Program-made: the position numbers and the translations under genes
Origin: Ilumatobacteraceae bacterium
Lineage (GTDB): Bacteria > Actinomycetota > Acidimicrobiia > Acidimicrobiales > Ilumatobacteraceae
DNA length: 36,543 nt
Reading direction: 5' to 3'
Assembly: GCA_023253435.1 (NCBI GenBank)
Contig: JALRGJ010000001.1
Coordinates: 1 to 36,543 of the forward strand
Shown: one piece after another, positions 3,600-29,253 of the stretch
Layout of the letters: each line of letters starts with the position of its first letter
How positions within the stretch are numbered: position 1 is the stretch's first letter
Notes under the pieces: model-generated
The model's input: the letters and a program-made list of their open reading frames with translations, nothing else
The model's database searches: none
Told to the model about the DNA's origin: nothing

Positions 3600-3648
3600 G
3601 ATTAGTTCCCCCTGTTTGATGCATTCCCCCGAATGCAGTGACGGAACT

Positions 3649-5931: not shown

Positions 5932-6035
5932 GATCGCTCCCTTATTCCACGGTGAAGAACAAACTACTTGCCAGAAAAGAGGGGGATTTTGAGTAGAGCC
6001 CATTTAGGGCTGTGTTGGTTAGTGAATGACGGTGG

Positions 6036-6952: not shown

Positions 6953-7477
6953 ATGGCCTCTCCCATCAAATTTGCCCATGTTGTTCTCAAAACTGCTCGC
7001 TTTGCCGAACAACTTGAGTGGTGGAAAGACTTTCTCGGTGCAACGGCACGTCATGAAAATGACTTCATTGCATTTCTCTCTTATGACGATGAGCATCATC
7101 GAATTGCAATTGCAAATATGCCCCACCTCGGAGAAAAGATAAATGACACAGTGGGTGTAGAACACTTTGCGTTTACTTACGCCACGCTTGATGATTTGTT
7201 TGATCAGTATGAGCGAATGAAAGCCAAAGGAATTTCTCCGTATTGGATGATCAATCATGGAATGACTTTGTCTGCGTATTACAGAGATGTAGATGGCAAC
7301 CAGGTAGAGACCCAGTTTGACTCCATGTCTCTGGCAGATGCCGACACATTTATGGCAGGGCCACTATTTGCTGCCAACCCCATTGGCATAAATGTTGATT
7401 TTGAAGTTCTCATTGAGCGGTATCGCAATGGAGCAACTGTGGAGACAATCACGGATTATGCAACTGCAGGTCAGTAG
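6953..7477 (+). CDS. VOC (glyoxalase/bleomycin-resistance/extradiol dioxygenase fold) family protein
   Basis: 174 aa. The N-terminus KFAHVVLKTARFAEQLEWWKDFLG...HHRIAI...VEHFAFTY resembles small biphenyl-diol-dioxygenase-III-like VOC proteins. An SD (AAGGAA) lies upstream. Confidence 0.8.
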   Translation: MASPIKFAHVVLKTARFAEQLEWWKDFLGATARHENDFIAFLSYDDEHHRIAIANMPHLGEKINDTVGVEHFAFTYATLDDLFDQYERMKAKGISPYWMINHGMTLSAYYRDVDGNQVETQFDSMSLADADTFMAGPLFAANPIGINVDFEVLIERYRNGATVETITDYATAGQ

Positions 7478-8073
7478 TGGAAAAAACAAAAGAGAGACCA
7501 CTTCGTGATCGGGTAGATACCGAAGAACGGCTTATTGAAGCGGCCGCAGATTTACTTGGTGAACTGGGGCCGCGTGCAGTGAGTGTTCGCGTCATTGCGG
7601 AAAGAGCGGGAGTAAACCATGGGCTCGTTCATCATTATTTCGGTGGCAAGGCCGGTCTACTGCGGTCCGCAATGACCAAGTTGGTAAAAGACCATGAGTC
7701 ATATGCAGTTGGTCAATCTAAAGATAAGCGTTACCCAGCGCCATTAGCTCTCACTGGGGATCAACGATATTTACGTGCGGTTCTTCGCTGTGTTCTCGAT
7801 GGAGAGATGGAACTTGCAGAGATGGAATTGACAACAGACTCCTCGGTTCCACGTGCTGCACTCACTGCAGAAATGAAACGACGCAATGTTTCTCAGGCAG
7901 ATGCGCAACTAAAGGCCGCTTTTGGTCTCTTTATGGCGACTGAAATGGGTTGGGCAGCGCTTGAACCATTTATTTTTTCCGTAACACAAACTGCGAATGA
8001 CAAAGAAAAGCAAGAAGTACGTGATGCTGCAAGAACTCAACTGCGGCAAATGGAGATTGAGAAGTTCAGATGA
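7477..8073 (+). CDS. TetR/AcrR family transcriptional regulator
   Basis: N-terminal HTH: ERLIEAAADLLGELGPRAVSVRVIAERAGVNHGLVHHYFGGK. The GTG start overlaps the VOC stop codon (TAGTG). The 3' end overlaps the next gene by ATGA. Confidence 0.85.
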   Translation: MEKTKERPLRDRVDTEERLIEAAADLLGELGPRAVSVRVIAERAGVNHGLVHHYFGGKAGLLRSAMTKLVKDHESYAVGQSKDKRYPAPLALTGDQRYLRAVLRCVLDGEMELAEMELTTDSSVPRAALTAEMKRRNVSQADAQLKAAFGLFMATEMGWAALEPFIFSVTQTANDKEKQEVRDAARTQLRQMEIEKFR

Positions 8074-15048: not shown

Positions 15049-17445
15049 TTACTGATGGTGATGAGTACGCGTGTACTTCAATCTGCTGACAAGTTCTATT
15101 GCTGCTCCACCACATGCACCAATGATGGCGGACTGGATTAATAGCTCTAGAGGCAAATTGAAATTAAAGAATTCTCTTGCGAATGGAACTTGGAATGCCG
15201 CTACCGCAAGTCCAATCATTGAACTGATTAGGGCAAGTTTCCACGTACGCAATGGTCGAGCAAGAACAACGAGAATTGTGAAGAATGCAATGAGCACGGC
15301 AAGCGTTGCTCCAGATCCAACTCTCCAACAATCAGTGTTTACAACAGTGTCTACAGATTTCACAACACTGCATTTCACGCCATCGGCTGCAGACCATTTA
15401 CCGCGTGCAGCAAAATCTGCAACCACCACGGTGAGACCGGAAATAGCTCCCGCAGGAACTGCAAATCTGACAATGCGTTCAAAGAAGCCGGGGGTGTATC
15501 GCTTTGTGTTTGGCCCGAGGGCAAGAACAAATGCAGGGATACCAATTGTGATGGAAGACAACAGAGTCAGGTGGCGGGGTAACAGTGGGAACGGGGTACT
15601 AATCAGTGCCGCGCTAAGAATGGCCACAAAACTCATGACGTTCTTGGCAAGAAAGAGGTTTGCAACACGCTCAACGTTTCCAATGACTCGTCTTCCTTCA
15701 GCCAGCACAGAAGGGAGATGAGCGAATTTGCCATCAAGCAAAATGAGTTGTGCGACCGCCTTGGTAGCTGGAGCACCGTTATCCATAGCGATTCCGATAT
15801 CCGCTTTTTTCAAAGCAAGGGCATCGTTCACTCCGTCACCGGTCATTGCAACTACTTCGCCATGTTCTTGAAGTGCTTGCACAATTGAACGCTTTTGCTC
15901 GGGAGATACTCGACCAAAGATTGTTCCGCTGAGAACAGTCTCGCGTAGCTCCTCTGGAGTGGATCCAAGAGTTCTTGCATCAATTGGTTCACCAACATCT
16001 ATTCCGACTCGTTTTGCGATAGCCCCAACAGTTTGTGGGTTGTCGCCTGAGATGATCATGACGCGCACATCTTGTTCTGCAAAATAAGAAAGGGTTTCGG
16101 CTGCATCAAGGCGTATGTCTTCACTCAGTACAACGAGAGCAACTGGGAATAACTGGCCTGGTTTATCGTGACCTTGCAAGGGGAGTGGTGAATGACAAAC
16201 CGCCAAGACTCTTCTGCCAGTAGATGCAAGTTCATTAACTCTGTTTAAGTGATTGCTCCCCGACGCAAGCAGCATTTCGGGTGCACCAAGTAGCCATGTT
16301 CCGTGATCTTCAAACTGAGTTGCTTTCCATTTCCTTGATGAGTCAAAAGGTATAGAGGCTGTATGTACCCAGTTTGTGGTGTTTGGGATTGCGGCTCCAA
16401 CAGTAGAGAGAGTTGCATTGGCACTTGGGTCATTGGCAAGTTCACCCAACGCTGCACGGATCTCATTCTCAGGAAGAGATCCCAAGAGTTCAATTCCTTC
16501 AAAGATCATTGCTCCGGTAGTGAGCGTGCCGGTTTTGTCGAGACATACAACACTTACCCGAGCTAAGCCTTCAACAGCAGGAAGTTCTTGTACTAATACC
16601 TGTTGACGAGTGAGTTGAACTGCGGCAGTGAGAAAAGCCAATGTTGTGAGTAAGACAAGACCTTCAGGAACGAGTCCAACTACGCCAGCGGACGCCTTGA
16701 TAACCGCATCACGCCATGAATCGGAATCATTATTTTGAAATTGAGACCACAGTTGTAAAGGCACCGCAATAACAATTGCCCACGTGATGTAGCGCAGCAT
16801 TCTGTCGATTGAAGAGTGAATTTCCGATTTTACTCGGGTAAAAATCTTTGCTTCAGCTGCAATGCGATGCGCATATGCCTCTTGTCCTACTGATTCAGCT
16901 ATGAACTTTCCTGAGCCTGCAGTAACGATGGTTCCTGAGAGCACGGAATCGCCATCTTGTTTCACAACTGCGTCATTCTCGCCAGTGAGATTTGCTTCGT
17001 TTATTTCTAGATCTCTGCTCTCTACAAGTTGACCATCAGCTGGTACCTGATCTCCTGCGCGAAGTGCAACGAGATCATCCTTGACAACTTGTGAAGTGAG
17101 AATCTCAACAAGGTTTCCCTCCCGAATCACAGTGGTGGTTGGGGAGTGCAGCAGTGCAAGCCCATCGAGTTTTCGTTTGGCGGACCACTCCTGAATAATT
17201 CCGATTGCAGCATTGATGATGACGAGAAATCCAAACATTGCATCTGCCAAAGAACCAGCGATGAGGACAACAACAAAAATTGCTCCAAGAATCGCATTAA
17301 ATCTTGTGAAAATATTTGAGCGAAAGATCTCATTTAAGGAACGGGAACTCGAGGTGTCTACAGCGTTTGTGAGTCCCTCGGAAACTCGCTGTTGAACCTC
17401 TTGAGATGTGAGACCGGTCTGGGCGAGCACACTTAAACGGTACAT
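15049..17445 (-). CDS. P-type cation-transporting ATPase (P2-like, mycobacterial CtpE-like size and architecture)
   Basis: It has the actuator motif LTGENDAV, the TM4 motif PEGL (VPEGLVLL), the phosphorylation site CLDKTGTLT and the hinge MTGDGVNDALALKKADIGIAM. It lacks the CPC motif, so it is not a P1B heavy-metal pump. Confidence 0.92.
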   Translation of the reverse strand: MYRLSVLAQTGLTSQEVQQRVSEGLTNAVDTSSSRSLNEIFRSNIFTRFNAILGAIFVVVLIAGSLADAMFGFLVIINAAIGIIQEWSAKRKLDGLALLHSPTTTVIREGNLVEILTSQVVKDDLVALRAGDQVPADGQLVESRDLEINEANLTGENDAVVKQDGDSVLSGTIVTAGSGKFIAESVGQEAYAHRIAAEAKIFTRVKSEIHSSIDRMLRYITWAIVIAVPLQLWSQFQNNDSDSWRDAVIKASAGVVGLVPEGLVLLTTLAFLTAAVQLTRQQVLVQELPAVEGLARVSVVCLDKTGTLTTGAMIFEGIELLGSLPENEIRAALGELANDPSANATLSTVGAAIPNTTNWVHTASIPFDSSRKWKATQFEDHGTWLLGAPEMLLASGSNHLNRVNELASTGRRVLAVCHSPLPLQGHDKPGQLFPVALVVLSEDIRLDAAETLSYFAEQDVRVMIISGDNPQTVGAIAKRVGIDVGEPIDARTLGSTPEELRETVLSGTIFGRVSPEQKRSIVQALQEHGEVVAMTGDGVNDALALKKADIGIAMDNGAPATKAVAQLILLDGKFAHLPSVLAEGRRVIGNVERVANLFLAKNVMSFVAILSAALISTPFPLLPRHLTLLSSITIGIPAFVLALGPNTKRYTPGFFERIVRFAVPAGAISGLTVVVADFAARGKWSAADGVKCSVVKSVDTVVNTDCWRVGSGATLAVLIAFFTILVVLARPLRTWKLALISSMIGLAVAAFQVPFAREFFNFNLPLELLIQSAIIGACGGAAIELVSRLKYTRTHHHQ

Positions 17446-17564
17446 GGTGGAGACATAGGGATGTATGTCAGTTCGTGTGATTCGTTTGTCGCTTTCGGGG
17501 CTTTTTCAGTTCACTTAGGAACCGGTCCTTCTTATTGTGATCATCGATAAGAGGAGGTGGCTCA

Positions 17565-18566
17565 ATGCGCCGCACAATCATTTCAATAATGTTGCTCGTT
17601 GCCATGGGAGTTGTTGGATTAGGAACAACTTCTCAGGCGGAATCCACATCAAGGGTCCAGAATCACGAGCAGATAGTCAAGTTTTGGACTAAGGCGCGGG
17701 TGGCTAAAGCCGTGTCGCGTGATTTCGTGCGAAATCCAACGACGGGGAAGTATTTGGAGAAAAACAGAAGATTTGATTCCGGATATGTGACCGGTGCTTC
17801 GTGGGAGTCTGGCGGTGAAGTTCAGGGAACCACAGGAAAAGTGTTGTTCTCCATGGGGAGTAGATATTACGTCTGCACAGCCAATGTTGTGGGTGATGGC
17901 GTAGCGGGTCGATCCATAATTTCAACTGCTGCTCACTGTGTCTTTGATGAGGTGAAGGGTGTATTCGCAGACAACTGGATGTTTGTCCCGGACTACGACA
18001 ATCAACCTGTAGCGCTGACGGGCGACGGATCTTTTTGTGATAGCACGCTCTATGGGTGTTGGACTGCTCAAGCAACAATTGTGTCTAACAATTATGCAAC
18101 TGCTGGTTCATTCAATAATCAAGCTGTGCTATCTGACTATGCATTTGTCGCAGTAGAACAAGGTGGGAAATCTCTTACTCACTTAGATGTGGAAGTAGGA
18201 AGTCAGCCCATTGCGTTTGCAGAAGAAGATTTTGAGATCAACATTTGGTCGTTTGGATATCCGGCAGCCAGAAAGTACAAGGGCGCAGATCTCACATACT
18301 GCAATGGTCTTTTGTACTTTGATGTTCGAATGGATTATCAGACCTATCAATTGGGTTGCAACATGACAGGTGGTGCCAGTGGCGGCCCCTGGTTCAAAGA
18401 TTTCTCAAACGAAGGCATAACTGCAGGAGAAGGAACGCAGTTTTCGGTCAATTCATATGGCTACAGCAACTCAAAGAATATGTATGGACCAATTTTTGGA
18501 ACAGAGACTGAATCTATGTTCAACACAGCGCAAACAATGACTGTAAACACGATCTTTGGAAGTTAG
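17565..18566 (+). CDS. Secreted trypsin-like (S1 family) serine peptidase
   Basis: It has a signal peptide (MRRTIISIMLLVAMGVVGLGTTSQA), the catalytic His motif STAAHC and the Ser motif GGASGGPWF. A strong SD (AAGAGGAGG) lies upstream. Confidence 0.85.
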   Translation: MRRTIISIMLLVAMGVVGLGTTSQAESTSRVQNHEQIVKFWTKARVAKAVSRDFVRNPTTGKYLEKNRRFDSGYVTGASWESGGEVQGTTGKVLFSMGSRYYVCTANVVGDGVAGRSIISTAAHCVFDEVKGVFADNWMFVPDYDNQPVALTGDGSFCDSTLYGCWTAQATIVSNNYATAGSFNNQAVLSDYAFVAVEQGGKSLTHLDVEVGSQPIAFAEEDFEINIWSFGYPAARKYKGADLTYCNGLLYFDVRMDYQTYQLGCNMTGGASGGPWFKDFSNEGITAGEGTQFSVNSYGYSNSKNMYGPIFGTETESMFNTAQTMTVNTIFGS

Positions 18567-18691
18567 GCCATTCACATTTGTTAGGGACAAACAATTTATT
18601 TATTTGTTAGCAACATACAAGTACTGATGTTGAGGTGAATCAAAAACTCTTGCACAACTAATTAAAAACTTATGTACTTATCATTAAGTAC

Positions 18692-19324
18692 ATGCGTTCG
18701 TGGTTGTTCAAAGTTGTTTTGATTTCTGTTGCAACTTTGGGAAGTGTGTTGACACATGGTTTTCAGGCAAATGCGCAATCGCTTTTTCTTCCTGTAAAAA
18801 CAGACGTTCATGGTGATGTTGGCAGATGGGATCCATGCAGTGCCATTGAGTGGAAAATCGGCGGCATTCGCAACAATAAGTATTTCGATGAACGAGTTCG
18901 TTCATCTGTGAATCAATTGGTTCAAGCAACTGGTTTGCAATTTCGTTTTGCTGGAATTGCTTCTGCAGAGGAAACCATCAATGCGCCACTGAATACGCTT
19001 GTGGTGTCTTTAGTTCCTCAACTCGCTAGTTCCATGGTGGGTGGCACCACACGCTTGACGTACTCCCAGGGAATTAATGAGTCGTTGGTAATTACTGGTG
19101 CAACAGTTCACATCAATGCACGCATTACAAAAGGGCATCTGAGAAAGCACCTCACACCAGTACTGCTGCATGAGCTCGGTCATGCCGTGGGGCTTGCTCA
19201 CGTTGATGATGCCAGCAACATTATGTATCCACGTGCGATTAAGCAGAAGAAGTACACCGTTGCAGATGTTGCCAATTTCTCAGTATTTGGTGCTGTGGCG
19301 GGTTGTCACCCAGTGAAGAATTAG
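18692..19324 (+). CDS. Secreted matrixin-like (M10) zinc metalloprotease
   Basis: It has a signal peptide (MRSWLFKVVLISVATLGSVLTHGFQANA), the HExxHxxGxxH motif (HELGHAVGLAH) and the Met-turn IMYP. There is no SD. TATCAT lies 7 nt upstream of the ATG, so the transcript may be leaderless. Confidence 0.85.
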   Translation: MRSWLFKVVLISVATLGSVLTHGFQANAQSLFLPVKTDVHGDVGRWDPCSAIEWKIGGIRNNKYFDERVRSSVNQLVQATGLQFRFAGIASAEETINAPLNTLVVSLVPQLASSMVGGTTRLTYSQGINESLVITGATVHINARITKGHLRKHLTPVLLHELGHAVGLAHVDDASNIMYPRAIKQKKYTVADVANFSVFGAVAGCHPVKN

Positions 19325-19944
19325 CGAATCTTTAGACCCATTCGTGGGCCATCGGGGCCATCAACTTCCACCATGCGCTCGTCAATGTCATCAAATTCAA
19401 GACGTAATGCGCGAGTCATGACTGCGTGCATTTCGTACATGCTGATGATGTACGTGAACTCCAGTATTTCCTCGTCTGACAAAAATTTCTTCAGTTCATT
19501 AAAGACGCCGTCGGCTACGCGACCGCCGTCGTATACAAGCGCATCGGTATATGCCATAACTGCTCGCTCTTGTGGGGTGAAGCATGTGGCTACTTCCCAG
19601 TGAGGAATAGCTTCAATCTTTTCTTCGCTTATTCCAGCGGTTCTGCAGCTCTTGCAGTGCTGAGAAAATACAAACAGGCTTTGTCTTGCCCAACCACAGC
19701 GAGTCATACCCAGTTCTCGAAGTTGAGGATCAAGTTTGCGTTCGGGATTTTGATAGAGCTGAAAACCTTTTACGGAGTGCTCAAATATTTCAGGCACAAG
19801 TGCAAACACTGTCCACCAGTCACCAGGAGTTCCCGTAGCAGTACCCCTTTCTTTTACCGGGTCTCTATCTCCAAACAGCAGGTTGTACATGCTGAGCACA
19901 ACACCTGAAGCTTCTGCCCTTGGAACTTCTTTTAGCCGTCTCAT
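19321..19944 (-). CDS. Carboxymuconolactone decarboxylase (CMD/AhpD-like) family protein
   Basis: 207 aa. The family call rests on overall resemblance (N-terminus ...EASGVVLSMYNLLFG..., alpha-helical). An SD (GGGGGA) lies upstream. Its stop codon overlaps the convergent metalloprotease stop (19321-19324). Confidence 0.7.
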   Translation of the reverse strand: MRRLKEVPRAEASGVVLSMYNLLFGDRDPVKERGTATGTPGDWWTVFALVPEIFEHSVKGFQLYQNPERKLDPQLRELGMTRCGWARQSLFVFSQHCKSCRTAGISEEKIEAIPHWEVATCFTPQERAVMAYTDALVYDGGRVADGVFNELKKFLSDEEILEFTYIISMYEMHAVMTRALRLEFDDIDERMVEVDGPDGPRMGLKIR

Positions 19945-20032
19945 TTATCCCCCGAAGTCTCTGCTGTGTTACAGCTTGATATGAAAACTAGTCCCAGAAC
20001 GTTGGGTGTATTCACGCCGATAGCGTGACGGC

Positions 20033-20809
20033 ATGGAGTCGAAAGTCAGTCCAGCTGCATTTTTTGGTCATGGAAGCCCCATGAACACTCTTGAGCACAA
20101 CGTGTACACAGAAGGTTGGCATACATTTGGAGCCTCTATCGAAAAGCCTCGCGCAATTCTGGTGATTTCTGCTCATTGGTACATCAATGCCACTGCGGTG
20201 ACAGCGATGAGTCAGCCCAAGACAATCCATGATTTTTACGGTTTCCCACAAGAGTTGTTCGATATCCAATATCCAGCTCTAGGTTTACCGGAATTAGCCC
20301 ACGAGGTTGCTGAGGTAGTGAAGCCAACGTGGGTGGGGATGGACACAGATAGTTGGGGTCTCGATCATGGAACGTGGTCGGTATTGCACCATATGTTTCC
20401 TCAAGCAGATGTTCCCGTTGTTCAGCTCTCTATCGATGCAAGTAAAGGTTTTGACTATCACTTATCTTTAGGCGCCGCTCTTGCACCCTTGCGAGAAAGC
20501 GGAGTTCTGATTCTGGGAAGCGGAAATATCGTGCACAATTTGGGGGCACTGCAGTGGGATAAACCCGATGCAGGGACTGAGTGGGCGATGTCATTTGATG
20601 ATGTGGTGCGAGACATTATGACGTCCGATCCTTCTCGGTTGCCATCCATTACTTCTCACCCTGCATATGTCAAAGCAGTTCCAACTCCAGATCATTTCAT
20701 TCCATCGCTATATGTGGCAGGTTTAGCGACTGCTGCGCAAACCGTGGCTCAACCCACCTTGCGTGGTTATGCAATGGGATCGTTGTCGATGACGTCGTAC
20801 ATCATCTAA
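20033..20809 (+). CDS. Class III extradiol ring-cleavage dioxygenase (4,5-DOPA dioxygenase / YgiD-like)
   Basis: It has FFGHGSPMNTLE at the N-terminus, ISAHW and GSGNIVHNL. Confidence 0.85.
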   Translation: MESKVSPAAFFGHGSPMNTLEHNVYTEGWHTFGASIEKPRAILVISAHWYINATAVTAMSQPKTIHDFYGFPQELFDIQYPALGLPELAHEVAEVVKPTWVGMDTDSWGLDHGTWSVLHHMFPQADVPVVQLSIDASKGFDYHLSLGAALAPLRESGVLILGSGNIVHNLGALQWDKPDAGTEWAMSFDDVVRDIMTSDPSRLPSITSHPAYVKAVPTPDHFIPSLYVAGLATAAQTVAQPTLRGYAMGSLSMTSYII

Positions 20810-20820
20810 TACATTGAGAC

Positions 20821-22038
20821 ATGGTGAATCCATTTGCAACTCTGAAATCTGTGGTTCGATTTGGGCGAATAGAAACAAATCGTGTTGAACGCAGAATGCA
20901 ACGTGCGGCAAATGTTCACGACTTGCGAAGGATTGCAAAACGAAGACTTCCAGGTGGTGTGTTTGATTACATCGATGGTGCCGCTGAAGATGAGAGAACT
21001 TATGTAGCTAACGAGCAGGCATTTGCTCAAGCTGTTTTTTCCCCGCGCGTTCTTGCAGGGGTGGGATCAATTGATACCTCTTCTACTCTTCTAGGGCAAA
21101 AAGTTCCATTCCCTCTAGTTCTTGCACCTACCGGCTTTACGCGTATTGCAGATCCTCAAGGTGAACTAGCTGTTGCTCGTGCTGCTCATTCAGCCCAGCT
21201 TCCTTACACTCTTTCCACTTTAAGTACCCGTTCCATTGAAGAAGTCAGATCAGTTTCTGATGGTCGACTGTGGTTTCAGGTGTATGCATGGCGAGATCGC
21301 GGTCTTGTAAAGGAAATGGTGCAACGGGCGGCTGATGCACGCTATGAGGCGCTGATGTTGACTGTTGATACGGCAGTCTTAGGACGACGAGAACGTGATG
21401 TTCGACGGGGTTTCTCTCTACCACCGAGTATTGGGCCAAAAACTTTTATTGACGGAGCGTTGCATCCTTCTTGGACTTTCTCGTTTCTGAAAAACGAACC
21501 GATCAGATTCGCCAATGTTGTGGGCAACTCAGTGGGAGATGGCGCATCACCGGTCACTTTGTCTGACTATGTGAATACACAGTTTGATCCCAATTTGTCT
21601 TGGGAAGACATTGATTGGTTGCGATCAATTTGGCAAGGTCCGATTCTTGTGAAAGGAATTCAGCGAGTAGAAGATGCGGTGACCGCCTCAAACATGGGGG
21701 TTTCTGGCATCATCTTGAGTAATCATGGTGGTCGTCAACTAGACGGTTCTCCCGCAACTTTTTCTCTCATTAGTCCCGTTGCAGATGCAGTGAACGGAAC
21801 GACAGAAATTTTTGTGGATGGTGGAGTTCGCCGGGGAAGTGACGTGGTGAAGGCAGTTGCAGCGGGTGCAACAGGAGCCATGATTGGTCGAGCATATTTA
21901 TATGGTCTAGGTGCAGGTGGGGAGCAGGGGGTACGTAAAGTGCTCAATTGGTTCCAGGCAGACATTGAGCGAACCATGTATCTCATCGGCGCACGATCTA
22001 TGAGTGAACTAGACCGCACGTTTCTCGCTCAGCAATAG
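20821..22038 (+). CDS. FMN-dependent alpha-hydroxy-acid dehydrogenase/oxidase (LldD-like)
   Basis: It has FDYIDGAAEDE, SNHGGRQLD and DGGVRRGSDV. It starts 11 nt after the dioxygenase stop. Confidence 0.9.
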   Translation: MVNPFATLKSVVRFGRIETNRVERRMQRAANVHDLRRIAKRRLPGGVFDYIDGAAEDERTYVANEQAFAQAVFSPRVLAGVGSIDTSSTLLGQKVPFPLVLAPTGFTRIADPQGELAVARAAHSAQLPYTLSTLSTRSIEEVRSVSDGRLWFQVYAWRDRGLVKEMVQRAADARYEALMLTVDTAVLGRRERDVRRGFSLPPSIGPKTFIDGALHPSWTFSFLKNEPIRFANVVGNSVGDGASPVTLSDYVNTQFDPNLSWEDIDWLRSIWQGPILVKGIQRVEDAVTASNMGVSGIILSNHGGRQLDGSPATFSLISPVADAVNGTTEIFVDGGVRRGSDVVKAVAAGATGAMIGRAYLYGLGAGGEQGVRKVLNWFQADIERTMYLIGARSMSELDRTFLAQQ

Positions 22039-22050
22039 TTTTAGGGTTGC

Positions 22051-22623
22051 TTATCCCTTATTAATAAGGTGCAAAATTGCGTTACTGACCGCTTCAGCAG
22101 CTCTGTTACCTAGGTCTTCGTTCATGACATCTAATGACCGCAGTTCAATCAACGACTTTGTGACGGCATAGATTTCATCAGACATCTTTTTCCTATCGTC
22201 ACCCAGCCATGCTTGGTATTGGTTATTGAGCAAGATGTCTCTCGCACGCCGAATTTCGCTTGCTTGACTGAACCGAGCTGAATGGGTTTCCAGGGTTCGG
22301 ATCATGGCTGAGTGTTTACGAACGTATTCAAGTCGCAAATCCACCAAAGCCCTGAGGCGGTGTTCCATGTTGCCCTCAACTGGCTCAGTACTGAAATAGG
22401 GAGCAATTTGGGGGATGAGGTAGTCGGTCACAGCTTCGATGAGTTGGTCTTGTGAATTGAAATAGCGGAACAAAGTTCGCTCAGAGATCCCGGTTCGTTC
22501 AGCAAGTAACGCCATCGTTTGGACTTGCCCACCTTCAGAGAAGATCTGAGCTGCGGTTTCTAATGCTTGTTGGCGCCCGCGATTGCGCCGTTCATGGCGT
22601 CCATCTGTTGCGTTTTCCACCAT
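22051..22623 (-). CDS. TetR/AcrR family transcriptional regulator
   Basis: HTH: MALLAERTGISERTLFRYFNSQDQL. An SD (GGAGG) lies upstream. It is divergent from the large secreted-protein gene. Confidence 0.85.
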   Translation of the reverse strand: MVENATDGRHERRNRGRQQALETAAQIFSEGGQVQTMALLAERTGISERTLFRYFNSQDQLIEAVTDYLIPQIAPYFSTEPVEGNMEHRLRALVDLRLEYVRKHSAMIRTLETHSARFSQASEIRRARDILLNNQYQAWLGDDRKKMSDEIYAVTKSLIELRSLDVMNEDLGNRAAEAVSNAILHLINKG

Positions 22624-22641
22624 TTTGAGGCCTCCAAAGTA

Positions 22642-22671
22642 TTGACAGTCATTCTGCCATTTCTTTAGGCT
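22642..22671 (+). promoter_or_regulatory. Putative sigma-70-type promoter giving a leaderless transcript of the large secreted-protein gene
   Basis: TTGACA lies at 22642-22647, followed by an 18-bp spacer and TAGGCT (TANNNT) at 22666-22671. Exactly 6 nt then separate it from the A of the ATG at 22678. There is no SD upstream of that ATG. Confidence 0.35.
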
Positions 22672-22677
22672 GTGTGC

Positions 22678-25600
22678 ATGTCAGCCAATTCTGCGTCTTC
22701 CATCCCCGTCCGTCGACTTCTTCTTGGAGTTGTGTCCCTGATGGCCTCGATTGTGGTGGTGGGGGTAGCCCCTAGCGCTGTGTCTGCTCAGGAAGAGGGG
22801 AAAGGCGCTCCAGATTTTCGACCACCATCAACGGAGATGGTGACTACTCGACTTGAATTACCAGAAGGCAACATTGTTCATCCGGGAAAATCACGACCAG
22901 TGCATGCGGTGTTTCATAACTCCGGATTCGATGCGGCGAACAACTTTGGTGTTTATGTGAAATCCCCTAAGGGAACTCAGGTCACTACTACATCGAAAAA
23001 TTGGTCATGTTCAAAAGAGTGGACACTGAAGGGTTACAAGTGTTCATATGCAAAGTCGCTTGAGGGTGAATCAGATGTAGATGCAATCTTTACGATCAAG
23101 AGTTTCAAAGATACTCCTGATGGCAAAGAGCATGTTTCTGTAACTCCATTTACATCTTCAAAGAAAAAAATTGAATCTCAAACCACTCCTTACACGATTG
23201 TGGATCTCGGCGACGCAGTTTTGCTTCCCCATGTTCAACACTTTTCACAGAACAAATGGAAAAAATGGACTGACGGAAGTCATGTAAAGACATACGCACA
23301 TGAGAAATATCGCTATCGCATTGTTGTTAATAATGAAGGGCACGAGACCCTGAAGAAGGGTTCCATTATTAACCTGCGTCAAAGAATCGGAAAGCATGTT
23401 GATCTCAATTCAGTAAAGGTGGCATTGGGTTACGGAACATGCTCCACTAAAAACAAAACTGTTAGCTGTGCACTGCGAGCAAGTGAAGATATTAAGCCAG
23501 GTGCTCATCTCACTTCAGTAGATGTCACCGTGACTCCACGTTCTGAAGAGGAACGAGTAAAACTCGGACTCATCTCTGTGACAAATCCGAAGAGTAAAGC
23601 ACTGCATTCTGCAAACGTGAATTTGGAGTCAACTCACCGTCCACCTTCTGTCAACATTGAACTGCATCATCGAACCCATGGTGAAGTGGGAGGAATTGCT
23701 CAAGTTGACGTCAAGCTTGAGAACATTTCGAAAAACATCACACACAAATCGCTCACAATGACGGCAAAGATGCCAAAAGAGATTTCATTCCGCAAGGTAA
23801 CTGGAACTGGATGGTCGTGTCAGCAAGAAGCCCGCATTTTGGAATGTAGGTATCGAGGAACAGTGGCGCCTAAGGCAACGTCTAAGAAAGCTGATATTTA
23901 CTTCCATATCTCCAAGAATGCATCTCCGAATGCTGATGGCTATGAGATTGACTTCTTGTCTGAGCACGCGGTGCGTCGATTCAATATGCCAGTTTTGCCA
24001 GCAATTGAACTCAATGTAGAAGCAACACCAGCTTCACTCTCCACGCAGTCAGATGTGAGAAGCAATATGGTGCGTTTAGATGCCGATGAGACACTTGATA
24101 ACGGAAATGCAGTGGACTACCAGTGGGTTCAACGCTGTACAACGGCACAAGATGTTCGAAAGTTTGATGCTTGTCCAAGCGGATCACCAGCACCAAAGGC
24201 GACTCTCAAGCACATCTATCAACCGCGTGCCCATGCTCTTATTCCTGATGTTGAAAAGAAGACAACGTTTGTTTTTGAGCTTCGCGCTTCTACTGAATCT
24301 TCTTCTGTAGAAAAAGTGGTGAAAGTTAAGGCATCTCCTCAATCAGTTTCTGCGGCTGGGGTGAGCTCTTGGGCAGTGACCACACCATCTTGGATTTCTA
24401 ACGCTCTTGTTGATGCGCAAGTAACTATCACCAATCCTGTTTTATCAAAGGGAAATTTCACCGCTGATGCCACCTTGCCTCAATCCATCATGGATCGATT
24501 CAAAGTGCCAAAGGATCAGAAGTTCTTATTGACAGCAACAGAGGTGCAGGGCAAAGAGTGCATAGTTATTCACGCCGGTGATACTAAAACAACTATCAAC
24601 ATGTTCTCGTTCACTACGGCGAATATGAAAGCAAAGTCGTTTGATTACATCGTGGCGCCTGCTTCTTGTACCTATTCAGGTGATACTTACAAAGGTCTCG
24701 GGTTGAGAATCAATGGTGAGGTTTTCGGTAATACTTTGACTTTCTCTGGTCCGGTGACGTTGACTCCAGCGTTGAAAGTGGATGCAAAGGCAACTACTAC
24801 AAGTTTGAATGTTTCGTTACCTGCGGGATCATTCAAATTTAAAAACGTCATCATTGGACTTCTGGTAGATGACTCAGCGGGTACCGCCAAGTTATCGATG
24901 GGCGGTGCATTCAATGTTTTCGGACTTGATATTGATGTAGTCGGAAATATTTCTGTACCCACCGGTGTAGGCGGTGCAGCTTTGGATGGCATGCAGGTGT
25001 CATTGACTACATCTACTTCACGAACATTCAAATTTGATGATGTGTCACTCAGTGATATGAGTCTGACAATTGGTCTGCGGTACACGCCGATATTGGCGGC
25101 AGACAAGGGGTTGATCTCTGTAAATGGCACCGGAACATTGGAGTTCATGGGTACCTCAGTAAAGATCTCACAACTTGAGGTGGACTTTGCCAACGGCCAA
25201 ATTGTTTCCACTCTCATTAAGGTCAGCGCAAATATGAAGATTCCTTCTATGAAGGAAGCCAAGGCTGATCTCTCTGTGATGTGGATTGCTGCTCAACCAG
25301 CAAAGCCGCTGCCTTCTGATGCCCCCAAGAATTCACCGGCACCATTGCCAACCCCGGCGTCTTTATCCGTTGACTTGACGGCAATTTTTGTCACCGACTC
25401 CGGTTTCTCTATTGGAACTCCTGCAAACCCTGCTTACTTGCACTACCGCAGCGGTCAGTGCATCTCAATGGGTGGACAAGTGATCGTTCCGGGAATTCTC
25501 GATGCAACAGTTTCCGGTTACCTGGTGACAGGTTTGCCATGTATGCCTGCGGCAATCAAGATGGGAGATGTACCCATTGTTGGTAAGCGTTCCATCTTGG

Positions 25601-26679
25601 CTGAAGTGCCACTACCTGTGGCCCCAGGAGATTGGCGTTTCGATGCTTCAAACGTGAAAATCACATTGGGTGGCTTTACAGCAACCGGAAACTTCACCAT
25701 TGGAAAAATGTACGGAGTTCCTTACGGATCACTCGATGCCCTCATTAATCTCACACCCTCTGACACAAAGAACACCATTTATGTACAGGGAAGTGTTGAT
25801 CCGTTAACTGGTGTGAAGTTAAAGGGTGAAGCTGATCTTCAAGTTGCTGGCGTGATGGCTCACTTCACGATTGATGCCGCCATGACCACTACAGATCAAC
25901 ACATTGCAGCTTCAGCAGATCTGAAGTTGGGTGGTTCTAAGTTCAGGCTCTCAGGCTATTTCGGACTTGAAAAGTATCAAGGACGAATGGTGCCATCTCA
26001 GAGTTTCACTGCATCGGTACCCAACTTTGAGATTGACGGATTCAAACTGGGATCTGCAGAACTGTCTATGTCTCAAACTCCAACTTCTGCAAGTGTGAGC
26101 GCTGCCCTCAAAGTGAATCTGGGCCTACTCAAATTTGATGGTGCTGCGTCATTCCACACTGTGAAAGATGGCGTGGCCATAACGGTAGATGCAGATGGAG
26201 AAATTGAAGTAAGTGATAAATGGAAGGGCGATATGTCTTTCCACATTTCAACCTGTGGCAATGATGCATGTACTTCAATGGGACCTCTAAAGATCACCGC
26301 AGGAGGACATGCTGTCATTCAAGGAAAGAAATTCGATTTAGGAACCATCAAATTCAATTCCGGCGGACACTTCAAAGAAAAGATCCGCTACAGCGACGAA
26401 TCTTGTGATAAGTCTGGAACGAAGGGTGGAATTCAGTTTGAAGGTTGCTTCAAGTACTCCATCATTGCGGAGATTTCAGACACTGCCCCTTATGCGCTGC
26501 TAGATGCTGACGCATCTCTGCACGTAAAGAGCAGAAGTCGTTGCACCTTGTGTATTCCAAAGAGATGGTACGGCTGGGACAGCTGGGGCACATTGTCTGG
26601 TGGTATTGAAGTGCAGTTTGATCCATTCAAACTTCGTCTTCACGTAGGAAGTATCAACATAAGTTTCAGCGGTAAATAG
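22678..26679 (+). CDS. Large secreted protein (1333 aa). It has three DUF11/CARDB-like Ig-fold modules, one PKD-like module and a ~780-aa C-terminal region of unknown family.
   Basis: The signal peptide is MSANSASSIPVRRLLLGVVSLMASIVVVGVAPSAVSA/QE. Three modules carry N-x-G...W/G-x-C...C...hydrophobic-strand patterns: FHNSGFDAA...NWSCSKEWTLKGYKCSY, VNNEGHETL...GYGTCSTKNKTVSCAL and LENISKNIT...GWSCQQEARILECRY. The segment DYQWVQ...TTFVFELRAS is PKD-like. I see no LPXTG motif, no C-terminal TM segment and no RTX or YD repeats. Confidence 0.85.
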   Translation: MSANSASSIPVRRLLLGVVSLMASIVVVGVAPSAVSAQEEGKGAPDFRPPSTEMVTTRLELPEGNIVHPGKSRPVHAVFHNSGFDAANNFGVYVKSPKGTQVTTTSKNWSCSKEWTLKGYKCSYAKSLEGESDVDAIFTIKSFKDTPDGKEHVSVTPFTSSKKKIESQTTPYTIVDLGDAVLLPHVQHFSQNKWKKWTDGSHVKTYAHEKYRYRIVVNNEGHETLKKGSIINLRQRIGKHVDLNSVKVALGYGTCSTKNKTVSCALRASEDIKPGAHLTSVDVTVTPRSEEERVKLGLISVTNPKSKALHSANVNLESTHRPPSVNIELHHRTHGEVGGIAQVDVKLENISKNITHKSLTMTAKMPKEISFRKVTGTGWSCQQEARILECRYRGTVAPKATSKKADIYFHISKNASPNADGYEIDFLSEHAVRRFNMPVLPAIELNVEATPASLSTQSDVRSNMVRLDADETLDNGNAVDYQWVQRCTTAQDVRKFDACPSGSPAPKATLKHIYQPRAHALIPDVEKKTTFVFELRASTESSSVEKVVKVKASPQSVSAAGVSSWAVTTPSWISNALVDAQVTITNPVLSKGNFTADATLPQSIMDRFKVPKDQKFLLTATEVQGKECIVIHAGDTKTTINMFSFTTANMKAKSFDYIVAPASCTYSGDTYKGLGLRINGEVFGNTLTFSGPVTLTPALKVDAKATTTSLNVSLPAGSFKFKNVIIGLLVDDSAGTAKLSMGGAFNVFGLDIDVVGNISVPTGVGGAALDGMQVSLTTSTSRTFKFDDVSLSDMSLTIGLRYTPILAADKGLISVNGTGTLEFMGTSVKISQLEVDFANGQIVSTLIKVSANMKIPSMKEAKADLSVMWIAAQPAKPLPSDAPKNSPAPLPTPASLSVDLTAIFVTDSGFSIGTPANPAYLHYRSGQCISMGGQVIVPGILDATVSGYLVTGLPCMPAAIKMGDVPIVGKRSILAEVPLPVAPGDWRFDASNVKITLGGFTATGNFTIGKMYGVPYGSLDALINLTPSDTKNTIYVQGSVDPLTGVKLKGEADLQVAGVMAHFTIDAAMTTTDQHIAASADLKLGGSKFRLSGYFGLEKYQGRMVPSQSFTASVPNFEIDGFKLGSAELSMSQTPTSASVSAALKVNLGLLKFDGAASFHTVKDGVAITVDADGEIEVSDKWKGDMSFHISTCGNDACTSMGPLKITAGGHAVIQGKKFDLGTIKFNSGGHFKEKIRYSDESCDKSGTKGGIQFEGCFKYSIIAEISDTAPYALLDADASLHVKSRSRCTLCIPKRWYGWDSWGTLSGGIEVQFDPFKLRLHVGSINISFSGK

Positions 26680-26689
26680 CTGATTTTGG

Positions 26690-26710
26690 CCGTGGTGAAG
26701 TTCACCACGG
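26690..26710 (+). terminator. Stem-loop 11 nt after the large gene's stop codon (possible attenuator or terminator, no U-tract)
   Basis: CCGTGGTGAA-G-TTCACCACGG is a perfect 10+10 palindrome. A realistic hairpin would be ~8 bp with a 5-nt loop. It is not followed by a T-run, so intrinsic-terminator function is uncertain. Confidence 0.35.
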
Positions 26711-26728
26711 GATAGCAATAAACCAGTA

Positions 26729-26764
26729 GGTTCTCCTTCGTATCGTGAGATATGAAGGAGAACC
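26729..26764 (+). promoter_or_regulatory. Shine-Dalgarno-sequestering hairpin in the heliorhodopsin leader
   Basis: GGTTCTCCTTC (26729-26739) is the exact reverse complement of GAAGGAGAACC (26754-26764), with a 14-nt loop. The 3' arm contains the AAGGAG SD (26755-26760), which sits 6 nt before the ATG at 26767. The 5' arm contains CTCCTT, an anti-SD mimic. Confidence 0.5.
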
Positions 26765-26766
26765 CC

Positions 26767-27516
26767 ATGGATGTCACATTTTCCAAACTGAAGCGACTTA
26801 ATTTGTGGGCCGCAGTCTTGCACTTAGTGCAAGGTGTTGCGGTTCTGGCTTTGGCAAATGATTTTGCGCTACCCGTCACAAGTTTTTTCTGGAATTCAGC
26901 ACCAACAAACACTCTAGATATCAATCGTATGGACAGAATGTTTGACGTGTCTATCGCATGGGCAGCTGCAATATTTCTTTTCTTGTCTGCACTGTTTCAT
27001 TTCATCGTTGCAACATCGGGAAGATCGCTTTACGAGCAGGAGATTTCACATCAACAGAACAGGTTCAGATGGGTGGAGTACTCAATTTCATCCACTGTGA
27101 TGATTATGAGCATCTGTCTGGTGTTTGGCATTTCAGATGTTGCTGGACTATTAGGAATCGCAGGAACAAATATTTCAATGATTTTGTTCGGGTGGATCAT
27201 GGAAGTTGTTAATAAGCCAGGAAATAAAGTGTGGTGGACCCCATTTTGGTTTGGCTGTATAGCAGGAATAATGCCGTGGCTTGGATTATTGGTGTACCTG
27301 TTTGGTCCTGGTGACGACATGCCAACATTTGTGTACGGAATTTTCATCACCATATTTATTTTCTTTAACTTGTTTGCTCTGAATCAGTACTTGCAATACA
27401 AACAAGTGGGGAAGTGGACAAGTTATGTTTATGGCGAACGGGTCTATCTCATCTTGAGTCTCACTGCAAAGAGTGCCCTTGCGTGGCAGCTTTACGGCAA
27501 CACGTTAAGTAACTAA
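26767..27516 (+). CDS. Heliorhodopsin (retinal-binding 7-TM protein)
   Basis: 249 aa with seven hydrophobic helices. The family-typical blocks are VLALANDFALP, FRWVEYSISS (counter-ion Glu, codon 27076-27078), ILFGW, PFWFGCIAGIMPW and ILSLTAKSALAWQ (Schiff-base Lys, codon 27469-27471). These match my recollection of heliorhodopsin 48C12. It lacks the RYxDW / DTx motifs of type-1 rhodopsins. The start at 26767 is preferred over 26752 because of the AAGGAG SD. Confidence 0.9.
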   Translation: MDVTFSKLKRLNLWAAVLHLVQGVAVLALANDFALPVTSFFWNSAPTNTLDINRMDRMFDVSIAWAAAIFLFLSALFHFIVATSGRSLYEQEISHQQNRFRWVEYSISSTVMIMSICLVFGISDVAGLLGIAGTNISMILFGWIMEVVNKPGNKVWWTPFWFGCIAGIMPWLGLLVYLFGPGDDMPTFVYGIFITIFIFFNLFALNQYLQYKQVGKWTSYVYGERVYLILSLTAKSALAWQLYGNTLSN

Positions 27517-27525
27517 AAGTTCTTT

Positions 27526-28482
27526 ATGAGACTTGGATCGTTTATTGATGGAGCAATGGATGCGCTTGTTGTACCTGGATTTTCGCGGGTTGGATATGCA
27601 ATTCGCTCCACACAATTCTCATCTCTTAGGTCTTATTCGCTCTCAGGTAAAACAGTGGTTGTTACGGGCCCTACCTCAGGCCTGGGGAATGCACTTGCGG
27701 AACAATTGGCCTCTATGAATGCGAACTTGGTATTAGTAGGAAGATCTGCAGAAAAACTCCGCATTACAATCGGGGCTCTGCATAAGCAGTTCCCTGCAGT
27801 CAACGTTGTCTCTGTAGTTGCTGACATGAGTGATTTACATTCGGTGCGAGAAGCTTCTCAAGAAATCTCAACACAGTGCCCTCAAATTCATGCGCTAGTG
27901 CATAACGCTGGAGCGTTGTTAAAGAACAGAGAGCAGACTGCTCAAAATCTCGAAACGACCATTGCATGTCATGTAGTTGGTCCACATCTAATGACTTCGC
28001 TTCTACTACCCGTTTTAAGAGCTTCACACGGCCGTGTCATCACGGTGTCATCTGGAGGAATGTACGCAGCAACTCTGACAGATATAAAACATGGAGAATC
28101 TCCTGAAATGTCGCCAGAGAAATACGATGGCACGAGGCAGTATGCAATTGCCAAGCGACTTCAAGTCACATTGAATGAAATGTGGGCCGAGCGTGAGCCA
28201 GGAATTGCATTTGCCGCTATGCATCCTGGATGGGCAGATACTCCCGGGGTCCAGGCTTCATTGCCAACGTTTCGACTATTGACTAAGCCGTTTCTCCGGT
28301 CTCCAGAGCAAGGAGCAGACACAATTGCCTGGTTGGTTGCAGATGACACGATTCTGAGGAAGAGCGGAAAATTTTGGTGTGATCGAGAAGTGCGTTCTAT
28401 TCACAAAACAGGCAAATCTAGAAAGTCTGATACTCGTGAGGCGCGCGAAGCACTCTGGGAATGGTGTCAAAAATACATCTGA
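27526..28482 (+). CDS. Short-chain dehydrogenase/reductase (SDR), DHRS12-like
   Basis: It has the cofactor motif VVVTGPTSGLGNALA, NAG (VHNAGA), the catalytic YxxxK (YAIAK) and the DHRS12-type C-terminal block HPGWADTPGV...LRSPEQGADTIAWL...SGKFWCDR. It starts 9 nt after the heliorhodopsin stop. Confidence 0.88.
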   Translation: MRLGSFIDGAMDALVVPGFSRVGYAIRSTQFSSLRSYSLSGKTVVVTGPTSGLGNALAEQLASMNANLVLVGRSAEKLRITIGALHKQFPAVNVVSVVADMSDLHSVREASQEISTQCPQIHALVHNAGALLKNREQTAQNLETTIACHVVGPHLMTSLLLPVLRASHGRVITVSSGGMYAATLTDIKHGESPEMSPEKYDGTRQYAIAKRLQVTLNEMWAEREPGIAFAAMHPGWADTPGVQASLPTFRLLTKPFLRSPEQGADTIAWLVADDTILRKSGKFWCDREVRSIHKTGKSRKSDTREAREALWEWCQKYI

Positions 28483-28551
28483 TTCGCTTCTTCAAGTCGT
28501 GATGCCTCATGTGAGTGGGGCAAGATGAAGAGACACAACTGGGGGAGCGTC

Positions 28552-29253
28552 ATGACAGACAAATTGCATAGTGGTAGCCAAGAACACGCAGTCATTGTGA
28601 ATGAGCGTCGAAGTATTCGCGGCTACAAAAAACAAGCAGTTCCCAAAGAATTGCTTGAAGAAGTCATCAGTATTGCCAAGCGTGCGCCATCTTCCATGAA
28701 CACTCAACCCTGGCATTTCCATGTGGTCACAGGTGATCCCCTAGAAAAAATTCGTGAAGGTAATACTTCTCGCATGATGGCTGGAGCAGGAATTGATCGT
28801 GAGATCAAGTTGAGCCATGGATATGAAGGAGTGCACCGAGATAGGCAAGTTGAAATTGCTGTGCAACTGTTTGAAGCCATGGGAATTGCGCGTGATGACA
28901 AAGAGCGCAGACAAGATTGGGTCATGCGTGGTTTCCGACAGTTTGATGCTCCAGTATCAATTGTGATCACCATCGATAAAGAACTTGCGTCAGACACAAT
29001 TGCTCATTTTGATTGTGGCGCAGTTACGTATGGTTTGGTTTTGGCGGCGTGGTCAAAAGGTCTTGGTTCTGTGATTAATGGACAAGGCATCATGCAGTCT
29101 TCTGTTGTTCGAGAATTTGCAAATATTCCAGAGAACGAAGTGATTATGACGTGCGTTGCGATGGGATTTCCCGATGAAGAGTTTGTTGCAAATCATGTGC
29201 AATCACGAAGAGCGGGAAATGACACAACTGCCTCATTCGTGGGTTTTGACTGA
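28552..29253 (+). CDS. Nitroreductase family (FMN-dependent) protein
   Basis: It has RRSIRGYKK and APSSMNTQPWHF. The start at the ATG at 28552 (MTDKL...) is preceded by GGGGGAG. The alternative ATG is at 28525. Confidence 0.85.
   Translation: MTDKLHSGSQEHAVIVNERRSIRGYKKQAVPKELLEEVISIAKRAPSSMNTQPWHFHVVTGDPLEKIREGNTSRMMAGAGIDREIKLSHGYEGVHRDRQVEIAVQLFEAMGIARDDKERRQDWVMRGFRQFDAPVSIVITIDKELASDTIAHFDCGAVTYGLVLAAWSKGLGSVINGQGIMQSSVVREFANIPENEVIMTCVAMGFPDEEFVANHVQSRRAGNDTTASFVGFD

Follow-up and report, generated by a model that had tools for sequence, protein, structure and literature searches.

The stretch of DNA analysed here, the first 36,543 nucleotides of contig JALRGJ010000001.1 of an Ilumatobacteraceae bacterium (assembly GCA_023253435.1; hereafter the window), carries at positions 26767-27516 of its forward strand an open reading frame (ORF) that is a bona fide, intact heliorhodopsin (HeR) gene of the 48C12 type, from a bacterium of the freshwater Ilumatobacteraceae (Acidimicrobiia). 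The most likely function of its product is that of a slow-cycling sensor of green light acting on a partner protein. Taken together, the observations described below are probably best explained by a 48C12-type HeR sensor, encoded by a stand-alone gene of lineage-specific position, whose translation would be throttled by a hairpin located in its leader.

Identity of the heliorhodopsin gene

The starting point was a first-pass annotation of the window, made from the letters alone, which had described the ORF as encoding a HeR of 249 residues with seven transmembrane segments. Translation indeed yields 249 residues followed by a stop codon, and the four sequence blocks quoted in that annotation were all found, namely VLALANDFALP (residues 26-36), RWVEYSISS (101-109), PFWFGCIAGIMPW (159-171) and SLTAKSALAWQ (231-241). 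An alternative in-frame ATG at 26752 would lengthen the protein by five residues. The ATG at 26767 is favoured over it because a Shine-Dalgarno sequence, AAGGAG (26755-26760), is found 6 nt 5' of this codon and because the homologues are 245-249 residues long.

Assignment to the family was straightforward. A Pfam search matched the protein to PF18761 (Heliorhodopsin) with 313.8 bits (cutoff 26.7) along the whole model (positions 1-242 of 242), and the E-value of 8.7e-94 means that this match is not due to chance. The HeR equivalog of NCBIfam, NF038020, scored 294.2 bits for a cutoff of 100, so that the check proposed in the first-pass annotation, a search with a family hidden Markov model, gave two strong, full-length matches. 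No second Pfam family was detected on the protein at E<=0.01, PF01036 (type-1 rhodopsins) included, and the RYxxDW motif found in helix C of type-1 rhodopsins, already reported as missing, does not occur in the ORF. Among the sequences of the PDB, the protein matched 48C12 (E ~1e-74), TaHeR (E 2e-54) and the eukaryotic Cv06 (E 4e-41).

The predicted structure led to the same result. An AlphaFold2 model, computed from an alignment of 36 sequences of clade members (pLDDT 82.5, pTM 0.80), shows by DSSP the seven long helices expected of a seven-transmembrane protein, together with a modelled A-B loop hairpin of two beta-strands (34-39 and 56-62). When this model was compared with the PDB by Foldseek, the ten best matches were all HeR structures (TM-scores of 0.85-0.89, E<=1.6e-15), while type-1 rhodopsins appeared with E-values from 2e-4, TM-scores of at most 0.68 and 10-18% identity. 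A better match to type-1 rhodopsins, which had been named beforehand as one of the results that would speak against a HeR, was thus not found: their family is not matched and their folds are far weaker matches.

The protein is an ordinary further member of a well-populated and structurally solved family, as 4,429 proteins match it at E<=1e-20. An identical protein is encoded on an independent Logan contig (L087), which shows the same gene order and 99.46% identity over 5.5 kb, and the two HeR genes differ by two synonymous and no non-synonymous changes; by this comparison, the gene is under purifying selection. The next relatives are 80-83% identical, and those that are named come from metagenome-assembled genomes (MAGs) of Ilumatobacteraceae, Acidimicrobiales and Actinomycetota from lakes. 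No paper characterising a HeR of Ilumatobacter or acIV was found in the literature searched. The composition of the gene gave no hint of a foreign origin, since the GC content at third codon positions (0.464, versus 0.405 +/- 0.038 in the neighbouring genes) is not an outlier. It was also observed that one Ilumatobacteraceae-type MAG, CAZCZM01, holds two HeR genes (L007 and L017), 81% identical to each other and found in differing contexts, which could be paralogues or could reflect mixed strains in the bin.

Functional residues

Residue positions were mapped by HMMER alignments to 48C12 and TaHeR, and invariance was judged over the 36 clade members. The Lys that forms the Schiff base with retinal is K235 (codon 27469..27471, forward strand, as are all codons given below), which corresponds to K241 in 48C12 and is invariant in 36 of the 36 members. 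The single counter-ion Glu is E104 (27076..27078), equivalent to E107 in 48C12 and E108 in TaHeR, and it is also invariant in the clade. Both codons had been singled out in the first-pass annotation, and the alignments to 48C12 and TaHeR place them on the Schiff-base and counter-ion sites. The counter-ion is flanked by a pair of His, formed by H19 (26821..26823) and H78 (26998..27000), the equivalents of 48C12 H23 and H80, each of them invariant in the 36-member alignment. The polar cluster also contains a pair of Ser, S74 and S231 (48C12 S76 and S237). N98, W102, Y105, Q22, R101, Y220, E224 and W240 are likewise the same as in 48C12, and all these residues, those of the polar cluster included, are mostly invariant over the 36 members. 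Finally, the colour-tuning pair Q207/A234 matches Q213/A240 of 48C12, that is, the red-type combination; Gln and Ala at these positions go with a lambda-max above 550 nm (PMC7807009).

Topology and proposed mode of action

With membrane segments defined by the helices of the AlphaFold2 model, 11 Lys and Arg residues are found in the loops on the N-terminal side versus two on the opposite side. By the positive-inside rule, the protein is predicted to have its N-terminus inside and its C-terminus outside, in keeping with the orientation anticipated in the first-pass annotation. The N-in topology of 48C12 and the HeR family has been determined experimentally, and it agrees with the prediction made here for a protein that is 54% identical to 48C12.

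The proposed mode of action would begin with the binding of all-trans retinal and the absorption of green light near 550 nm, a value predicted because both tuning positions are of the red type. It would continue with a slow photocycle in which the proton of the Schiff base passes to an acceptor group within the protein instead of being released across the membrane, as in 48C12 and TaHeR, for which an absence of transport has been stated (PMC9448325). The light signal would probably leave the protein through the conserved cytoplasmic loops, above all the invariant F-G loop (LQY..G.W..Y..GE), and its target, by analogy with other HeRs, would probably be a cytoplasmic or membrane partner whose activity is changed by the HeR. 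A sensor role exerted by partner regulation is proposed because this same mode is experimentally supported in other bacterial HeRs, the partners being glutamine synthetase (PMC9529153), a photolyase (PMC9769723) and an ABC transporter (PMC11109279). The first-pass annotation had mentioned isolated reports on glutamine synthetase and photolyase; these links do exist, but its summary was incomplete, since further links have been published. They comprise the ABC transporter just mentioned (PMC11109279), viral HeRs that transport protons (PMC9448325), a connection both to two-component systems and to oxidative stress (PMC8612252), and the proposal of a carotenoid antenna site (bioRxiv 10.1101/2025.11.27.691015).

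The leader of the gene

The 5' neighbour of the HeR gene encodes a secreted protein of 1335 residues (denoted here as the Big protein), and the 87-nt gap between both genes, which constitutes the HeR leader, holds two hairpins. One of them, at 26729..26764 of the forward strand, is an inverted repeat (94% complementary): the arms are 16 nt long and include one G.U pair, and the loop is GUGA. Both the AAGGAG sequence at 26755-26760 and the alternative ATG at 26752 fall in the 3' arm, whose end is 2 nt away from the ATG at 26767. The RNA fold of the region 26680-26790 has an energy of -47.9 kcal/mol (z -6.33), and none of 200 shuffled sequences was as stable. The other is a palindrome with perfect 10-nt arms, located at 26690..26710 (forward strand), 11 nt after the stop codon of the Big protein, which also forms a hairpin in the RNA fold. 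It resembles a terminator but lacks a T-run, and it was not called by a consensus terminator scan; indeed, the search for canonical promoters and terminators around the HeR gene gave nothing over the shuffle expectation.

The leader hairpin is identical in L087 and is absent 5' of HeR in the relatives, in which the palindrome is not conserved either. No Rfam family matches the leader and no further copy of the hairpin was found in the window. A metagenome scan for the pair of arms retrieved 40 unrelated loci, none of them with a HeR and many with a start codon a few bases downstream. The notion of a HeR-specific, mobile or repeated element was rejected on these grounds, namely the single copy in the window and the arm matches in unrelated loci, and the hairpin is of a generic kind, in which an anti-Shine-Dalgarno arm faces the Shine-Dalgarno sequence. 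In the simplest reading, this structure would limit or condition the translation of HeR, which would probably be throttled by sequestration of the Shine-Dalgarno sequence. The hairpin may also help to terminate the upstream gene.

Gene neighbourhood and the collinear relative

The Big protein (22672-26679, forward strand) has a signal peptide and no Pfam or NCBIfam match, and a gene for a TetR regulator (22051-22623, reverse strand) lies divergent to it. On the other side, 9 nt after the HeR stop codon, begins a gene for a DHRS12-like SDR oxidoreductase (27526..28482, forward strand; adh_short, 82 bits), which has no recognisable Shine-Dalgarno sequence and is followed by genes for a nitroreductase and an amidohydrolase. 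HeR and SDR are probably co-transcribed. The orthologues of this SDR are labelled 'SDR family member 12' (DHRS12) at JGI, and its family is very large, with over 7,000 homologues (E<=1e-40), most of them unlinked to HeR. As a side observation, the Big protein is conserved, with 71% identity in L132 and 47% in L001, and a divergent TetR gene adjoins it in each case.

The first-pass annotation had considered that a defined genomic context made this copy the most informative object of the window. This part did not hold, and the key observation came from a contig (L128/L132; ENA ERZ4199032 NODE_499) that is collinear with window positions 15049-29253 over ten genes. In order, these encode a P-type ATPase (86% amino acid identity), a trypsin-like protein (65%), a matrixin-like protein (52%), CMD (92%), LigB (80%), an FMN-dependent dehydrogenase (85%), TetR (65%), the Big protein (71%), SDR (69%) and the nitroreductase (85%). 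The contig has no HeR. Instead, the stop codon of the Big protein is followed by 11 nt, GTTGAGGAGGA, which include a good Shine-Dalgarno sequence, and then by the ATG of SDR. In the window, this 11-nt spacer is replaced by a segment of 846 bp (26680..27525, forward strand) made of the leader, the HeR gene and the 9-nt spacer. The comparison of these two taxa suggests either an insertion of HeR at this site, as a single gene, or its clean loss in the L128/L132 lineage. The position of SDR beside the Big gene is independent of HeR, and HeR is a single-gene unit between the Big protein gene and SDR, in a lineage-specific position. Since SDR adjoins the Big gene without HeR, the adjacency of HeR and SDR is weak evidence of a functional pair. 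It was also noticed that the L132 region at ~4375-5964, compared with window positions 20821-22623, contains matches to only residues 1-331 of 405 of the FMN-dependent dehydrogenase and 1-150 of 190 of the convergent TetR, which suggests a deletion spanning the 3' ends of both genes in the L132 lineage.

A search for conserved partners pointed in the same direction. By tblastn, 31 proteins of the window were compared with 86 HeR loci, the immediate neighbours were clustered, and the recurrent clusters were annotated with Pfam. Neighbours were chosen crudely, by the longest ORF, and some of those chosen at GC-rich loci (e.g., L018_up and L008_dn) seem to be spurious ORFs on the antisense strand. 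No conserved partner common to the window was found among the 86 loci, and the two neighbours of the window HeR remained singletons in the clustering. An SDR was adjacent in 0 of the 86 loci, with any SDR-like gene within 6 kb in two, and no HeR was present in any of the four SDR orthologue contexts checked. SDR as a dedicated partner of HeR was thus rejected from both sides, that of the HeR loci and that of the SDR orthologues. Ten recurrent operon neighbours have been described for HeRs: glutamine synthetase, NAD+ synthetase, a photolyase, MerR, TerC, an ABC transporter, SDR, alpha/beta hydrolase, DUF2177 and DUF2238 (PMC11109279). Formally, the window could be placed in the SDR group of that work, yet the adjacency is missing from the collinear relative and from the 86 related loci, and none of the other partner genes adjoins HeR in the window.

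Arrangements at other heliorhodopsin loci

At least six different neighbour arrangements were found among HeRs that are 75-83% identical. In six loci of the Nanopelagicales type (L035, L036, L042, L061, L062 and L064), a gene for an AI-2E family transporter (PF01594) lies directly 5' of HeR on the same strand, and in four of these loci the two genes share 4 nt, with the stop codon of the transporter gene overlapping the start of HeR. This transporter, which is outside the ten neighbour groups of PMC11109279, looks like a conserved operon partner of HeR in that clade. At L005/L006 (positions 6975-7949), whose HeR is 77% identical, a polyprenyl synthase gene is found 49 nt 5' of HeR on the same strand, a possible connection to isoprenoids or the chromophore; the window has no such neighbour.

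A gene of ~373 residues with no Pfam match (MLHPFDDFPVHQSS...) is located 22-42 nt 5' of HeR, on the same strand, in a sub-clade with L008, L010 and L015 (and also in L011 and L016), and the sub-clade L012-L014 has instead a 146-residue protein with several transmembrane segments, encoded 18 nt 5' of HeR. Neither gene is present in the window. Lastly, in the sub-clade L018-L024 (65-67% identical), a convergent alpha/beta-hydrolase gene lies 3' of HeR, which recalls the corresponding group of PMC11109279, here on the opposite strand.

Weighing the alternatives

Several points weigh against a stand-alone sensor whose translation is throttled by the leader hairpin. The confidence of the AlphaFold2 model falls to 68-69 for residues 150-190. 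Pfam scans of the window, which covered 31 of its 32 ORFs that do not overlap and reach 100 residues, detected no glutamine synthetase, photolyase, histidine kinase or second rhodopsin as partner candidates and no genes for the synthesis of retinal or carotenoids (blh/crt) in the 36.5 kb, and the sole ABC transporter is encoded 12 kb from HeR. As for the hairpin, it has been seen in one lineage, in two near-identical strains, and support from covariation is impossible because the only other copy, that of L087, is identical at the hairpin; moreover, the structure could be a terminator of the upstream gene instead.

Two alternatives give SDR a larger role. In the first, HeR and SDR could constitute a functional light-regulated pair, in which HeR would modulate the oxidoreductase, or SDR would interconvert retinol and retinal for the chromophore. 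The common strand, the 9-nt gap and the lack of a Shine-Dalgarno sequence proper to SDR suggest co-transcription and translational coupling; the arrangement occurs in two independent samples (the window and L087), 'SDR family oxidoreductase' figures among the ten recurrent operon neighbours (PMC11109279), and the nearest solved relatives of this SDR are, although weakly (E 8e-13), light-dependent protochlorophyllide reductases. However, in L128/L132 the SDR (69% identical) follows the Big gene directly and has a Shine-Dalgarno sequence of its own, with no HeR, three more orthologues have no HeR nearby, the 86 HeR loci contain no adjacent SDR, and the large SDR family is mostly unlinked to HeR, all of which makes the pair quite improbable. 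Only slightly better placed, and still improbable, is a relocatable single-gene HeR in Ilumatobacteraceae that would have come to lie here between the gene of a surface protein and SDR and would have created a new HeR-SDR transcription unit, with translation gated by the unusually stable anti-Shine-Dalgarno hairpin. If true, the dosage of the photoreceptor would be set post-transcriptionally, and SDR would have come newly under a control linked to HeR and possibly to light.

The remaining alternatives concern the protein itself. In a two-chromophore light harvester, the lateral fenestration would bind an exogenous xanthophyll, whose excitation energy would pass to retinal, a role that would be compatible with a sensory one. 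The site proposed for the carotenoid consists, in 48C12 numbering, of two aromatic residues (162 and 206), two small ones (166 and 210) and Gly 169 (bioRxiv 10.1101/2025.11.27.691015), and the fenestration motif of the window HeR is complete, as in 48C12: F160/F200, C164/A204, G167 and N201, six positions that are all invariant in the clade. The putative carotenoid site is present as a sequence motif. Nevertheless, the hypothesis comes from a preprint that used structure comparison and docking alone, and by the count given there ~91% of HeRs have the motif, which therefore does not set the window copy apart; such an antenna is a minority possibility. Part of the same region argues against proton transport, driven or gated by light, of the kind known from the viral V2HeR3 group. 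Transport of protons does occur in some HeRs, and the hallmark of the viral ones is a Glu at V2HeR3 position 191 and a Trp, the gate, at 195 (PMC9448325). The window HeR has the counter-ion Glu and also E224 (V2HeR3 E215), although both are conserved in all HeRs. In contrast, in its sixth transmembrane segment (I196 to N201, codons 27352..27369, forward strand; F200 and N201 belong also to the fenestration motif), I196 aligns with E191 and F200 with W195, the same residues as in the non-transporting TaHeR (I199/F203) and as in 48C12; the position of V2HeR3 E205 is a Gln, as in 48C12, and the protein belongs to the actinobacterial clade of 48C12. Transport is therefore scarcely credible. Hardly more plausible would be a relic gene, silent or in decay and in effect not translated, with its ribosome-binding site locked in the 16-bp hairpin. 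The great stability of this hairpin over the Shine-Dalgarno sequence and the alternative start, and the lineage-specific position of the gene, would fit such a relic, but the ORF is intact, every functional residue is conserved and the HeR genes of the two strains differ only synonymously, while similar hairpins of the anti-Shine-Dalgarno type are found ahead of start codons in numerous unrelated genomes, which is compatible with regulation rather than decay. The throttled, stand-alone sensor of the 48C12 type is thus retained as the preferred explanation.

Other genes of the window

The window is rich in oxidoreductases and TetR regulators, and its oxidoreductases, described as TetR-regulated, comprise a P450, a BVMO-like protein, two luciferase-like monooxygenases, AKR, GFO and nitroreductase proteins. 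The LigB-family gene (20033-20809, forward strand) scored 311 bits, against a cutoff of 233, with an NCBIfam equivalog for 4,5-DOPA extradiol dioxygenase. On the reverse strand, an APH/EcKL-like kinase ORF (2493-3869) and a sulfatase ORF (3649-6003) overlap by ~220 nt, and the true start of the kinase is probably further downstream than listed.

Significance

For the question of the physiological role of HeRs, a copy with a conserved and interpretable partner would be valuable, and the window copy offers none. Its neighbours are accidental to the lineage and say little about function: the context is uninformative in this respect because it is lineage-specific and because HeR is absent from the site in the collinear relative. 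The copy does provide a data point, namely that actinobacterial HeRs usually stand alone and that their context shifts even among proteins 75-83% identical, which argues against a single dedicated operon partner in the clade. In addition, the hairpin over the ribosome-binding site is a putative lead on how the expression of HeR stays low.

Comparison with known systems

Type-1 rhodopsins (actinorhodopsin, xanthorhodopsin and bacteriorhodopsin) share with the window HeR the seven-transmembrane fold of a retinal protein and the Lys on the last helix, with TM-scores of up to 0.68. They differ in that the window HeR has no match to PF01036, neither the RYxxDW nor a DTE-type motif, only 10-18% identity and the opposite predicted topology. 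V2HeR3 and related viral HeRs that transport protons are closer, being members of the same family with the same counter-ion Glu, but the window HeR lacks the equivalents of E191 and W195 and has I196 and F200 in their place. The HeRs with known partners, that is, AbHeR with glutamine synthetase (PMC9529153), TfHeR with a photolyase (PMC9769723) and OcHeR with the OmrDE ABC transporter (PMC11109279), are also of the same family; in this case the difference lies in the gene context, since none of these partner genes is adjacent to the window HeR, whose only operon neighbour is SDR, in a linkage that is not conserved.

TaHeR, from the Thermoplasmatales archaeon SG8-52-1 (PDB 6IS6 and 7U55), is ~41% identical (E 2e-54), with TM-scores of 0.85-0.87, and has the same Ile and Phe where the transporting HeRs have Glu and Trp. 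It is, however, archaeal, and has a Tyr at the first aromatic position of the fenestration, which is F160 in the window HeR. The closest known system is 48C12 itself, obtained from an actinobacterial fosmid of Lake Kinneret (PDB 6SU3, 6SU4, 6UH3 and 9LJJ), which is 54% identical over 238 aligned residues. It comes from another actinobacterial class, the window HeR belonging to Acidimicrobiia/Ilumatobacteraceae by its nearest named relatives, and, compared with it, the window HeR has an E-F loop four residues shorter and an A-B loop two residues longer. Aside from these differences, both proteins have the same fold (TM-scores of 0.85-0.89) and fall in the same length class, and they share the Lys, the Glu, the pairs of His and Ser, the Q/A tuning combination and the fenestration motif.

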